From NCBI GenBank assembly GCA_027593235.1, contig JAQCIU010000040.1, positions 1 through 27,737 on the forward strand: 27,737 nucleotides of DNA, written 5' to 3'. A program made the position numbers and the translations under genes. The stretch's first letter is position 1, and each line of letters starts with the position of its first letter. This stretch comes from Chloroflexota bacterium. Lineage in GTDB: Bacteria > Chloroflexota > Dehalococcoidia > UBA2979. The notes below the pieces were generated by a model. That model worked only from the letters and a program-made list of their open reading frames with translations. It was not told the origin of the DNA and searched no databases. This document shows positions 715 through 7,241 of this stretch, one piece after another.

Positions 715-738
715 TCCCGCATCGATGGAGGCGCCCCA

Positions 739-1569
739 ATGGCAAACGCGACTGAGTCACAACATCCGCTGCTCGTCACCACCGAATGGCTGGCCGGGCA
801 GATCGACAGCCCGCCCTTCGTGCTCATCGATTGCAGCGATCCGGACGCGTATCGCCGGGCACACATCCCAGGCGCGGTTTCGATCGGTCCCACCCCGACG
901 CTGAAGAGCGCCGCCAACTCCCGACTGGTGATGGAGGCCGACCATTTCGAACCGCTGATGCGGCGCCTCGGCATCTCGAATGACACCCCGGTGATCGTCT
1001 ACGACGACAACTCGTCGCTGCAGGCCGCCCGCGTCTGGTGGGTATTCGAGCGCTTCGGACATCGCGACGTGCGCGTCCTCGATGGTGGCTTCAACGCCTG
1101 GCTGGCCGAGGGACGGCCGCTGACCTCGCGCGCCCCGCGCCCCGAGCCCGGCACCTTCACCGCCAGCATCGACGAGTCGCACCACTGCCGGCTCGAGGAC
1201 ATGCGCGCCCTCGTCGACGGCGGCGGCACACAGATCTGGGATGTGCGCTCGCAAGGCGAGTGGCTGGGCGAGAACGATCGAGGGAACAAGCGGGCGGGCC
1301 ACGTGCCCGGTGCGGTGTGGCTCGAGTGGACCGCACTCCTCGAGGGCCCGCCGATCGGCCGCTTCCGCCCGCTCGACGAAATTCGCCAGATCCTCGCTGC
1401 CGCGGGCATCAACCCCGAGGCCGAGACGGTCACCTACTGACAGGGTGGCATTCGCGCGGCGGTCGCCGCGTTCATCCTTCGACTGCTGGGGAACGACAAC
1501 GTCCGCAACTTCGACGGCTCGATGGGACTGTGGGCCAACCTCGACGACACGCCGCTCACCCTGGAGTGA
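739..1569 (+). CDS. Tandem-domain rhodanese/3-mercaptopyruvate sulfurtransferase (SseA-like), selenocysteine at codon 234 (TGA 1438-1440), 276 aa
   Basis: Motifs YRRAHIPGAV, LDGGFNAW, DVRS..EW and GHVPGA are present. Reading through the TGA gives VTY-U-QGGIRAA (active-site loop, normally YCxxGxRA), then NVRNFDGSMGLWAN (rhodanese C-terminal signature) to TGA 1567-1569. Confidence 0.9.
1442..1478 (+). promoter_or_regulatory. Candidate bacterial SECIS hairpin
   Basis: Lower stem AGGGTG(1442-47)/CATCCT(1473-78), upper stem CGCGGC(1455-60)/GCCGCG(1465-70), apical loop GGTC starting 21 nt after the UGA. Confidence 0.7.
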
Positions 1570-1667: not shown

Positions 1668-1742
1668 TGGAGCGGAAGACGAGATTCGAACTCGCGACCC
1701 TCTCCTTGGCAAGGAGATGCTCTACCACTGAGCTACTTCCGC
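1668..1742 (-). tRNA. tRNA-Gly(GCC)
   Basis: Reverse complement GCGGAAGTAGCTCAGTGGTAGAGCATCTCCTTGCCAAGGAGAGGGTCGCGAGTTCGAATCTCGTCTTCCGCTCCA; anticodon GCC; encoded CCA. Confidence 0.97.
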
Positions 1743-1771
1743 CCGGTCAAACCACCCCCTGAGGGATTGGA

Positions 1772-1858
1772 TGGTGCCCAGGATGAGACTCGAACTCATA
1801 CGCCCTTGCGAGCACTGCCCCCTCAAGACAGCGTGTCTGCCAATTCCACCACCTGGGC
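1772..1858 (-). tRNA. tRNA-Leu(GAG)
   Basis: Reverse complement GCCCAGGTGGTGGAATTGGCAGACACGCTGTCTTGAGGGGGCAG...GTTCGAGTCTCATCCTGGGCACCA; long variable arm; anticodon GAG. Confidence 0.97.
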
Positions 1859-1889
1859 CCGCGCCGTGCTGACAGGGTTGAGGCTGCAG

Positions 1890-1965
1890 TGGCAGGAGTG
1901 GAGGGACTCGAACCCCCGGCCCGCGGTTTTGGAGACCGCTGCTCTACCAACTGAGCTACACTCCT
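1890..1965 (-). tRNA. tRNA-Trp(CCA)
   Basis: Reverse complement AGGAGTGTAGCTCAGTTGGTAGAGCAGCGGTCTCCAAAACCGCGGGCCGGGGGTTCGAGTCCCTCCACTCCTGCCA; anticodon CCA. Confidence 0.97.
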
Positions 1966-5174: not shown

Positions 5175-6833
5175 ATGCAGATGACCGGCGGACAAGCCCT
5201 GGTGCAGTCGCTGAAGATCGAGGGCCTTGAGACGATCTTCGCGCTCCCGGGTATCCAGCTCGACTACGCGATCGACGCGTTCTGGGAAGAGCGCGACGCG
5301 ATCCGGATGATCCACCCGCGGCACGAACAGGCCACCGCGTACATGGCGGATGGCTTCGCCCGCACCACCGGCAAGATCGGGACCTGCCTCGTCGTCCCGG
5401 GCCCCGGCCTGCTCAATGCCGCCGCTGGCCTGAGCACCGCCTACGCCTGCAGCTCACCCGTCCTCTGCGTCACCGGCCAGATCGCCTCGAACCAGATCGG
5501 CAAGGGCCTCGGCGCCCTCCACGAGATCAACAACCAGCTCGAAACCATCTCCTCCGTCGTGAAATCCGCCGAGCGCGCGATGACCCCCGAGGAGATCCCG
5601 GGCATGGTCCGTCGCGCCTTCCAGGCGTTGCGCACCGGTCGCCCGCGCCCGGTCGAGATCGAGGTCCCGCCGGACGTCCTCGAGCGTGTCGCCGACATCA
5701 CGCTGCTTGAGCCCGACACCTCCGATCGATCCGAGGCGTCGCCCGGCGATCCGGATCTCCTCGCGCAGGCGGCCGCCATCCTCGGCAAGGCCGAGCGCCC
5801 GGTGATCTGGTCCGGCGGCGGCGTGCTCTCCGCCGGCGCCTGGGAGGAACTGCGCGAGCTGTCGCGCATCCTCGAGGCCCCCGTCGTCATGTCCGGCAAC
5901 GGCCGCGGCGCCGTCTCCGATCGCGACTACCGAGGTCTCACCGGCTTCCTGCCGACCCAGGAGCTGTTCGGCAGTGCGGACGCCGTCCTGATCGTCGGCT
6001 CGCGCTTCTTCCTCAACCCGCGGTTCGCCGTCTCGCTCCCGCCGGAGTTGCCGGTGATCCAGATCGACGTCGACCCCGATCAGATCGGCAAGACCGTCAC
6101 CCCGCACATCGGCATCGAGGCCGACGCCAAGTCCGCGCTCGGCCAGCTCGTGAACCTCGTGCCGTCCTCGAACCGGGCGCGCAGCTCCCGCGAGGCGGAA
6201 CTGACCGCGCTCAAGGAGCGCGCGCGCCAGGGCAACGCCCAGGCGGAGATGCAGGCGGCCTACGCCCTCACCATCCGCGAGGAGTTGCCCGACGACGGCA
6301 TCCTCGTCAGCGAGAGCACGCAGGTCGGGTACTGGGCGCAGATGGGCGGCTACCCCGTCTACGAGCCGCGCACCATGCTCACCTCGGGCTACCAGGGCAC
6401 GCTCGGCTACGGCTTCGCCACCGCGCTTGGCGCGCAGGTCGGCAACCCGGACAAGAAGGTCGTCTCCATCAACGGCGATGGCGGCTTCTTCTACAACGTC
6501 CAGGAACTCTCCACCCAGGCGCAGCAGCAGATCCCGCTCGTCACCGTCGTTTTCAACGACAACGGCTACGGCAACGTCCGCCGCATGCAGGTCCTGAAGT
6601 ACAACGGCCACAAGATCGCCACCGACCTGCAGAACCCGGACATGGTGAAGATGGCAGAGTCCTTCGGCGTCGCCGGCTTCCGCGCCGACACCCCCGAATC
6701 CTTCCGAGGCGTGCTCCGCGAAGCCCTCGCCAGCAACGCCCCGGCGCTCATCGAGGTACCTGTCCCGCCCGCCGAGGAGATCGGCACCTTCCCCATGGTC
6801 CAGGACGCACCTCGCCCGGTGCTCAACCTCTAG
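5175..6833 (+). CDS. Thiamine pyrophosphate-dependent enzyme (acetolactate synthase large subunit-like)
   Basis: Motifs RHEQATAYMADGFAR, PGPG and GDGGF...VVFND (ThDP binding). Start placed at ATG 5175 after a GGGAG RBS. Confidence 0.92.
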   Translation: MQMTGGQALVQSLKIEGLETIFALPGIQLDYAIDAFWEERDAIRMIHPRHEQATAYMADGFARTTGKIGTCLVVPGPGLLNAAAGLSTAYACSSPVLCVTGQIASNQIGKGLGALHEINNQLETISSVVKSAERAMTPEEIPGMVRRAFQALRTGRPRPVEIEVPPDVLERVADITLLEPDTSDRSEASPGDPDLLAQAAAILGKAERPVIWSGGGVLSAGAWEELRELSRILEAPVVMSGNGRGAVSDRDYRGLTGFLPTQELFGSADAVLIVGSRFFLNPRFAVSLPPELPVIQIDVDPDQIGKTVTPHIGIEADAKSALGQLVNLVPSSNRARSSREAELTALKERARQGNAQAEMQAAYALTIREELPDDGILVSESTQVGYWAQMGGYPVYEPRTMLTSGYQGTLGYGFATALGAQVGNPDKKVVSINGDGGFFYNVQELSTQAQQQIPLVTVVFNDNGYGNVRRMQVLKYNGHKIATDLQNPDMVKMAESFGVAGFRADTPESFRGVLREALASNAPALIEVPVPPAEEIGTFPMVQDAPRPVLNL

Positions 6834-7241
6834 GGAAGGCGCACCCGATCTCGCGAGGACAGCCCCGGACGTCCGAGTGACCCGACGTCGTCCGACGAAA
6901 GGCACTCGGCGCCGCGGCCACCGATTGGCAGCTCGGTTTGCCGATTCGGCCAGTGCCACCAGATCCTCGGTGCCGCGGCGTAACAGCTCTCGTGCCCGGC
7001 TCGTGGTTCCGGGCCTCCCGACAGGCGCTGACAGGCACGCTGTCTCTCCACGTTCGTCGCGCGAGCTGGGATGCCTTCGGCCGCACCGTGCTCGGAACGC
7101 GCCGTCGAACACGCGCCACCGGGCTGGTCTCCACCTGCAGCCGGGACTGGAACCGGCTGGGCGCCAGATGCGCGCGGCATCGGACGAGGTCGCGCGCCGC
7201 GTCGGCTAGCGCGAGTGGTTCATTGGGGGAGGGCGAGGAAG

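Follow-up and report, generated by a model that had tools for sequence, protein, structure and literature searches.

Rhodanese-type sulfurtransferases with selenocysteine (Sec) in place of the catalytic cysteine have been a computational prediction since 2005, and the reviews consulted still list the family as predicted. Zhang, Fomenko & Gladyshev (2005; PMC1088965) described 15 new selenoprotein families from the Sargasso Sea; one of them, with 3 sequences, is the 'Rhodanese-related sulfurtransferase' (COG2897), for which they showed a selenocysteine insertion sequence (SECIS). The same paper describes a small apical loop with a guanosine as a feature of bacterial SECIS elements and uses as a criterion the presence of at least two Cys homologs with a predominance of TGA/Cys pairs. 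Among later sources, the Global Ocean Sampling (GOS) study (2008; PMC2398784) reports 8 sequences under cd01449 and 1 under COG2897, a 2022 review (PMC9312934) names the Sec rhodanese family among the predicted selenoproteins, and a table in a 2026 review gives the motif UxxG for a Sec rhodanese 'form 4'. No biochemical study of a Sec rhodanese was found in the literature, with subscription journals and supplements lying outside the search. The Dehalococcoidia are described in the BSepDB paper (PMC13326102) as rich in selenoproteins, with metagenome-assembled genomes that contain 49 and 46 of them. The window analyzed here (the whole stretch of DNA, 27,737 nucleotides, positions 1 to 27,737 of contig JAQCIU010000040.1 in assembly GCA_027593235.1) comes from a member of this class and carries a rhodanese gene at 739–1569 on the forward strand. 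The gene is very probably a genuine selenoprotein gene in which the UGA codon at 1438–1440 is read as Sec. Its predicted features fit the COG2897-type selenoprotein family of 2005, and the 2005, GOS and 2022 listings bear out the remark in a first-pass annotation of this DNA that the family is not new.

The probable selenocysteine codon and its homologs

The open reading frame at 739–1440 (+) encodes 233 amino acids with the C-terminus ...ETVTY and is closed by the TGA at 1438–1440, past which 42 further in-frame codons (QGGIRAAVAAFILRLLGNDNVRNFDGSMGLWANLDDTPLTLE) lead to a TGA at 1567–1569. The read-through product is 276 amino acids long (233 + 1 + 42), and the full coding sequence (739–1569, +) consists of 276 codons including the Sec codon, followed by the TGA terminator (1567–1569). 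The Pfam Rhodanese domain (PF00581) matches the 276-residue protein in two stretches (E 3e-39) and the best NCBIfam model (281 positions) spans residues 11–274. The best solved relatives are thiosulfate sulfurtransferases (TSTs), with Thermus 1uar aligning over residues 9–273 (E 1e-42). Residue U234 aligns with the catalytic Cys of 1uar ('...vvyCRiaeRs') and of 3p3a ('...ivyCRigeRs'), and the motif at the TGA, Y-U-Q-G-G-I-R, is compatible with CxxGxR; by sequence alignment only, the loop and the nucleophile column correspond to the catalytic six-residue loop of the C-terminal TST repeat. The assignment of the UGA (1438–1440, +) as Sec234 in the loop U-Q-G-G-I-R-A is based on this structure alignment, on the TGA/Cys column of the homologs and on the contigs of other sequencing runs. 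The N-terminal rhodanese domain (residues 14–123; 778–1107, +), delimited by the best Pfam stretch and the alignment to solved structures, is to judge from these alignments a non-catalytic repeat: its 'VIVYDD' aligns with 'VVLYGD'/'VVIYGD' of 1uar and 3p3a, and there is no Cys at this position in the query or in either chain. Another conserved Cys, Cys150 (codon 1186–1188, +), stands at the beginning of the catalytic repeat; all 17 Sec orthologs and 23 of the 33 Cys orthologs have it, and it may act as a partner residue for Sec234. The first-pass annotation had proposed that the frame stops at ETVTY yet runs on for 42 codons, that it encodes a full-length protein of 276 amino acids and that the TGA coincides with the catalytic Cys of the YCxxGxR loop. 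The read-through translation, the two Rhodanese stretches and the alignments with 1uar, 3p3a and the homolog column agree with each of these proposals.

The annotation had also foreseen that automated pipelines would call the gene truncated, and this is what public databases contain. Among the best 120 database relatives, 46 have a length of 223–241 amino acids and cover 80–84% of the query, and the six truncated relatives that were read all end in ...Y, directly before the Sec position. Records of 231–234 amino acids carry the NCBI name 'rhodanese-like domain-containing protein [Dehalococcoidia bacterium]'. Public records thus cut off the catalytic half of the active site, which amounts to an annotation error at scale, and because the records are truncated a metabolic reconstruction or metaproteomic search will miss the enzyme in abundant aquatic Dehalococcoidia.

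A six-frame search of 41 related genomes, including the genome of the window itself, identified matches in 35 of them, and several of the best matches contained exactly one in-frame TGA. Within the bacterial family (99 genomes) 48 genomes yielded a total of 52 matches (E <= 1e-60), of which 17 contain one TGA, one contains a TAG and 34 are free of stops. The catalytic column was mapped in 62 loci (the family matches and more distant ones), corresponding to 60 distinct loci after the removal of 2 duplicates, and holds TGA in 25 and TGC or TGT in 35. Each of the 25 TGA-bearing loci has its TGA at the catalytic column (25/25), and the sole extra internal TGA is the second one of a paralog (L152); the placement is beyond chance because all internal TGAs that were checked, with this one exception, fall on one column. 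In a class-wide sample of 20 TGA-bearing rows, picked by hand to span families, 19 have the TGA at the catalytic column, and the remaining row (G288) is a Cys form whose own terminator TGA was aligned with the last residue of the query. The median pairwise dN/dS (ratio of nonsynonymous to synonymous substitution rates) among the 17 Sec orthologs is 0.148 for the 42 codons after the TGA (125/136 pairs usable) and 0.409 for the part before it (120/136 pairs usable), values that are rough since synonymous sites are near saturation in many pairs. On these estimates the downstream tail is clearly not decaying, and purifying selection appears stronger after the TGA than before it.

A few loci carry further in-frame stops. 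The distant paralog L152 (G001 contig C7:415492-416692) has a TGA also at the Cys150 column, where its nearest relatives have Cys, and no clear hairpin was obtained on folding the 60 nucleotides 3' of this second TGA. An in-frame TAG is found in L031 (G019 contig C1:759252-760058) and in L190 (G371 contig C180:3549-4358; approximately column 103), which may be pseudogenes or reflect sequencing errors.

The genome of the window is a draft (78 contigs, 89.7% complete) that contains the machinery for Sec decoding: a tRNA-Sec (72.7 bits, with a cut-off of 47; anticodon tca according to ARAGORN), SelA (452.8 bits), the winged-helix domain specific to SelB (61.5 bits, located at the end of a contig) and SelD (359.3 bits). 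The selD gene (L012:1501-2439, -, equivalent to G000 contig C16:112734-113672) has an in-frame TGA of its own in ...SCAGUAGK; SelD is itself a selenoprotein and Sec decoding is therefore in use in the organism. Release factor 2 (RF2) is also encoded (473.9 bits against a cut-off of 370) and the terminator of the rhodanese gene is a TGA, as in several of the Sec orthologs, which argues that UGA is an ordinary stop codon elsewhere in the organism. The TGA at 1438–1440 is covered without any difference at these positions by contigs of three public runs from three studies (X2, X3 and X4), one of which may also hold the source sample. The X2 contig (record 1) spans 600–1652 and the X4 contig (record 24) spans 600–1494, both with 0 differences, and the X3 contig (record 17) spans 882–1697 with 12 listed differences, at 945 and from 1587 on. 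A single contig from an RNA run (X20; 153 nucleotides, depth 2) covers 1285–1437 with 4 differences, derives from a relative and is uninformative on expression and read-through. Three checks suggested in the first-pass annotation turned out in favor of Sec: relatives have TGA (25) or TGC/TGT (35) at the column and conservation beyond it (dN/dS 0.148), all four of selA, selB, selC and selD are present in the genome, and contigs of three other runs, two of which belong to other studies, retain the TGA.

The hairpin downstream of the UGA codon

RNA folding predicts a SECIS-like hairpin at 1454–1471 (+), corresponding to +17 to +34 when the U of the UGA is counted as +1, with a stem of 7 bp (1454–1460 paired with 1465–1471) and the apical loop GGUC (1461–1464). 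All seven stem pairs (7/7) are present in 17/17 Sec orthologs versus 2/33 Cys orthologs, in which the number of pairs ranges from 3 to 7. Two of the pairs join third-codon positions and covary among the Sec orthologs: +18:+33 is C:G in 10 and G:C in 7, and +21:+30 is G:C in 6, A:U in 1 and C:G in 10. The same positions in the Cys forms show a mixture with many non-pairs. In the alignment of the 17 sequences (16 distinct rows) 100% of the cells pair, and 26–58% do so when the 3' partner is slid by 1–3 columns. The covariation score is 0.325 versus 0.090 ± 0.028 for shuffled alignments (0/500 shuffles reach 0.325) and the difference in pair counts gives a Mann–Whitney p of 1.5e-8; owing to the relatedness of the sequences, this p value and the shuffle counts make the support look stronger than it is. 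The apical loops of the Sec orthologs all contain a G (GGUC in 3, GUUC in 9, AGUU in 3 and GUUG in 2), and the corresponding position in the Cys forms mostly reads CUUC (17/33). The codons that form the hairpin encode R-A-A-V/F-A-A-F in the Sec forms and R-G-A-F-G/A-x-F in most Cys forms; because of this difference the RNA signal and the protein sequence appear to be coupled.

A second register was identified in Sec forms outside the family ortholog group, where 21 of 27 contain a 6-bp stem (+15..+20 paired with +24..+29) closed by a triloop GGC or GUC. CCGUGC-GGC-GCACGG is the predominant sequence, and three of these forms show a compensatory G..C variant. This class-wide hairpin is near-invariant and is encoded by I-R-A-A-H (L171-L190, L033 and L147-L150; 15–29 nucleotides after the TGA). 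The 7-bp stem, shifted by 3 nucleotides in the 3' direction, is found in 17/17 family orthologs, including that of the window, and in 0/27 of the other Sec forms. The protein sequence over the shifted hairpin in the family of the window is I-R-A-A-V/F-A-A-F.

Besides the relatedness of the sequences, several observations weigh against the reading of the gene as a selenoprotein gene with a functional SECIS. Folded alone, the hairpin region is not unusual (z -1.02; 35/200 shuffles fold as well; fold of 1430–1510), and the case for the hairpin is comparative only because the single-sequence fold is no better than shuffled sequence. The hairpin lies within Ala-Ala-Val-Ala-Ala codons, so that its pairing potential is partly set by the protein, and the two Cys orthologs with 7/7 pairs reach the full stem as well. 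Rfam gives no match within 1380–1620 at E values up to 10, a result of little weight as Rfam may hold no bacterial SECIS model; at the gathering threshold, the scan of the whole window returned 6 tRNAs only. Finally, the genome is incomplete (89.7%) with SelB at a contig end, and no neighboring gene linked to sulfur or selenium was found in the window or in the 14 loci of relatives that were examined.

Turnover between selenocysteine and cysteine forms

Across the class Dehalococcoidia, 301 evenly sampled genomes were searched at a threshold of E <= 1e-50. Matches were found in 140 of the 301 genomes, and 150 of the 156 matches were available for classification: 95 contain one TGA, 1 contains two TGAs, 2 contain a TGA and a TAG, 1 contains only a TAG and 51 have no stop, with the raw TGA count being slightly high because one fetched row is a Cys form with its own stop aligned. 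Judged from these sequences, Sec forms outnumber Cys forms across the Dehalococcoidia.

Phylogenetic trees were calculated without the TAG-broken L031 and L190. A careful tree of 59 rows requires 4 state changes between Sec and Cys, 3 of which are forced by well-supported branches, and a single clade of the 33 family Cys orthologs (a group that was named after the tree was seen) is rejected with a log-likelihood difference of 196 (p-AU, approximately unbiased test, 2e-75). For a quick tree with 84 rows, six Cys-type sequences of other phyla served as the root; here all basal Dehalococcoidia branches are Sec and the Cys forms appear nested at six points, of which five are forced. This tree is biased toward a Sec-basal picture because the added class-wide rows were picked for TGA. 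The count of state changes alone cannot tell gain from loss.

Synteny provides independent evidence of turnover: the gene order DUF1684 - CNNM/CorC - rhodanese - MFS is common to three Sec loci (L157, L159 and L161) and two Cys loci (L163 and L167) from four genera, with the gene at approximately 6001–6840 of each locus. Since Sec and Cys forms of different genera occur in the same gene order, the change of codon must have taken place in situ. The genome of the window and those of two congeners each contain a Sec copy together with a Cys copy, and the Cys copies show 59–62% identity to the protein of the window. The Cys paralog in the genome of the window is full-length (G000 contig C75:62210-63016, L125) with 61% identity to the Sec form, and the Cys copies of the congeners are located on G002 contig C48 and G003 contig C64. 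The Cys paralog may represent a selenium-independent back-up for conditions of low selenium; a role of this kind is reported for Sec/Cys isoenzymes in Methanococcus maripaludis (PMC11097638).

Taken jointly, these data can be read as a history in which Sec is ancestral as well as commoner in the Dehalococcoidia, the family of the window reverted from Sec to Cys several times independently, at least once in the same slot, and the SECIS was remodeled from the 6-bp stem with a triloop (+15..+29) to the 7-bp stem with a tetraloop (+17..+34). We regard the chances of this joint reading as about evenly balanced. If it is true, recurrent Sec-to-Cys reversion runs counter to the 2026 review, which describes bacterial replacement of Sec by Cys as uncommon, with FdhA and SelD as the main documented cases. 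The nested Cys forms together with the two hairpin registers offer a compact case in which to study the origin, shift and decay of bacterial SECIS elements within the coding sequence, and the dense natural Sec/Cys pairs, some of them within one genome, provide material for the question of what selenium adds to a sulfurtransferase.

Function, rival readings and comparison with known systems

In the proposed mechanism, the mRNA hairpin at 1454–1471 would recruit SelB carrying Sec-tRNA(Sec), the UGA at 1438–1440 would be read as selenocysteine (residue 234) and not as a stop, and translation would run on to 1567–1569 to give a rhodanese-type sulfurtransferase of 276 amino acids and two domains. 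In the U-Q-G-G-I-R-A loop of the C-terminal domain, the part of the catalytic Cys that forms the persulfide would fall to Sec234. By analogy with rhodaneses, a double displacement can be envisaged in which the selenolate accepts the sulfane sulfur of a donor (thiosulfate or a persulfide), and the resulting Se-S(H) intermediate would hand the sulfur on to a thiophilic acceptor. Possible intermediates of the Se-S or Se-Se kind had also been put forward in the first-pass annotation.

Three other explanations of the UGA have to be weighed against its reading as Sec. It could be a nonsense mutation, leaving a pseudogene or only a 233-residue protein without the catalytic loop, as public gene callers have it when they stop the protein at Y233; a truncated product is in any case to be expected under selenium scarcity. 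The TGA shared at this column by 17 family orthologs and most class-wide homologs, the lower dN/dS of the 42 downstream codons compared with the upstream part, and the covariation of the hairpin make this very improbable. Read-through with insertion of another amino acid, by a near-cognate tRNA or a reassigned code (e.g., UGA as Trp or Gly), would likewise open the frame and has nothing specific in its favor. It is somewhat less probable still: the UGA aligns only with Cys codons in homologs, the full Sec machinery and RF2 are present, the gene itself terminates with TGA, as do 12 of the 28 open frames of at least 250 codons in the window, and the anticodon of the tRNA-Trp in the window is the usual cca. 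An error in sequencing or assembly, with TGC or TGT as the true codon, deserves the least credence of the three. The genome from which the window is taken is a draft in 78 contigs, but the same letters are found at 1438–1440 in contigs of three other runs from three studies, and the column reads TGA in 16 further genomes of the family.

With the gene taken as encoding a Sec-containing rhodanese, a different question is which element it handles. The protein may instead serve selenium trafficking, as a perselenide (Se-Se) carrier that delivers selenium to, e.g., SelD. The fold of the family is shared with selenium-linked proteins, rhodanese is able to take up selenium in vitro in the form of a perselenide, the genome encodes a selenophosphate synthetase (SelD), and a weak NCBIfam match exists to the selenite/tellurite-reduction rhodanese ExtH. 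The ExtH score (60.6 bits) is, however, far below the cut-off of 200, no selenium-metabolism gene adjoins the gene in the window or in the 14 loci of relatives, and the replacement of Sec by Cys at one syntenic position agrees no less well with a general sulfurtransferase. A role as selenium carrier is rather unlikely but a serious alternative. The transfer of sulfane sulfur, suggested by analogy with the solved TSTs, is a plausible role that we consider neither probable nor improbable overall.

The gene context gives no functional hint because no neighbor is linked to sulfur or selenium. Upstream, the window begins inside a gene for a luciferase-like monooxygenase, of which a fragment remains at 2–592 (+; PF00296, E 4.4e-11), and downstream follow three tRNA genes, a GT2 glycosyltransferase, GtrA and PAC2. 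In relatives, the neighbors are MFS, CNNM/CorC, DUF1684, SDR and GDPD genes. The clustering of open reading frames in these high-GC loci also gave shadow-frame clusters, which were disregarded. A Shine-Dalgarno-like GGAGG was read by eye at 727–731 (+), 7 nucleotides 5' of the ATG, and a promoter and terminator scan of 550–1750 found no sites of either kind. The tRNA cluster, tRNA-Gly(gcc), tRNA-Leu(gag) and tRNA-Trp(cca), occupies 1668–1965 (-), approximately 100 nucleotides past the stop of the gene, and reads from other organisms pile up on it in every run compared.

The closest solved proteins are the Cys-type TSTs (Thermus thermophilus rhodanese 1uar; Mycobacterium TST/SseA 3p3a and 3hzu; Azotobacter RhdA 1e0c), which align over residues 9–274 (E 1e-42 to 2e-38), have their catalytic Cys in the column of U234 and share the inactive N-terminal repeat. 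They differ in having Cys where Sec is predicted here and in the loop, CRI[AG]ERS versus UQGGIRA, and the identity is modest. The 3-mercaptopyruvate sulfurtransferases (MSTs) share the two-domain fold (1urh, E 2.2e-28) and provide the best NCBIfam match (SseA, NF008557), but the gene is not an SseA equivalog because its 131.6 bits are below the equivalog cut-off of 250, and the solved MSTs score under the TSTs. The MST loop is CG[ST]GVT, unlike UQGGIR, which is closer to the thiosulfate-type loop. Two other families combine a rhodanese domain with Sec, rhodanese_LYCAU (NF041203, motif CxU) and TsoB (NF045694); membership was rejected for both, with 17.1 bits against a cut-off of 115 and 16.9 bits against a cut-off of 805, respectively, and with Sec motifs that differ from the one found here. 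The hairpin resembles the bacterial SECIS of the Escherichia coli fdhF type in its position shortly 3' of the UGA inside the coding sequence and in its small G-containing apical loop. The fdhF element is the textbook bacterial SECIS, and its loop is also GGUC at a similar distance. In contrast to that type, two registers exist here within one protein family and Rfam returned no match in 1380–1620.

Overall, the kind of system involved is already known and the finding will not surprise a specialist. The features of the COG2897/SseA-type family are found in this gene and its relatives: tandem rhodanese domains, Sec for the catalytic Cys with many Cys homologs (25 TGA and 35 Cys codons in the column), a UxxG motif in the form UQGG, a stem-loop 3' of the UGA (7 bp, with tetraloops) whose small apical loop contains a G, and an origin in aquatic or marine habitats. 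The match is by description and not by the sequences of the exemplars AACY01016424, MQG53192.1 and MCY3690685.1, and five truncated relatives sourced from NCBI carry accessions other than those of the published exemplars. Compared with the papers on the COG2897 family (3 sequences, and 8 + 1), and beyond what the first-pass annotation had noted, the present analysis adds the prevalence of the Sec form across the Dehalococcoidia, nested Cys forms, some of them in the same slot, and a hairpin that is shifted by 3 nucleotides in the clade of the window.

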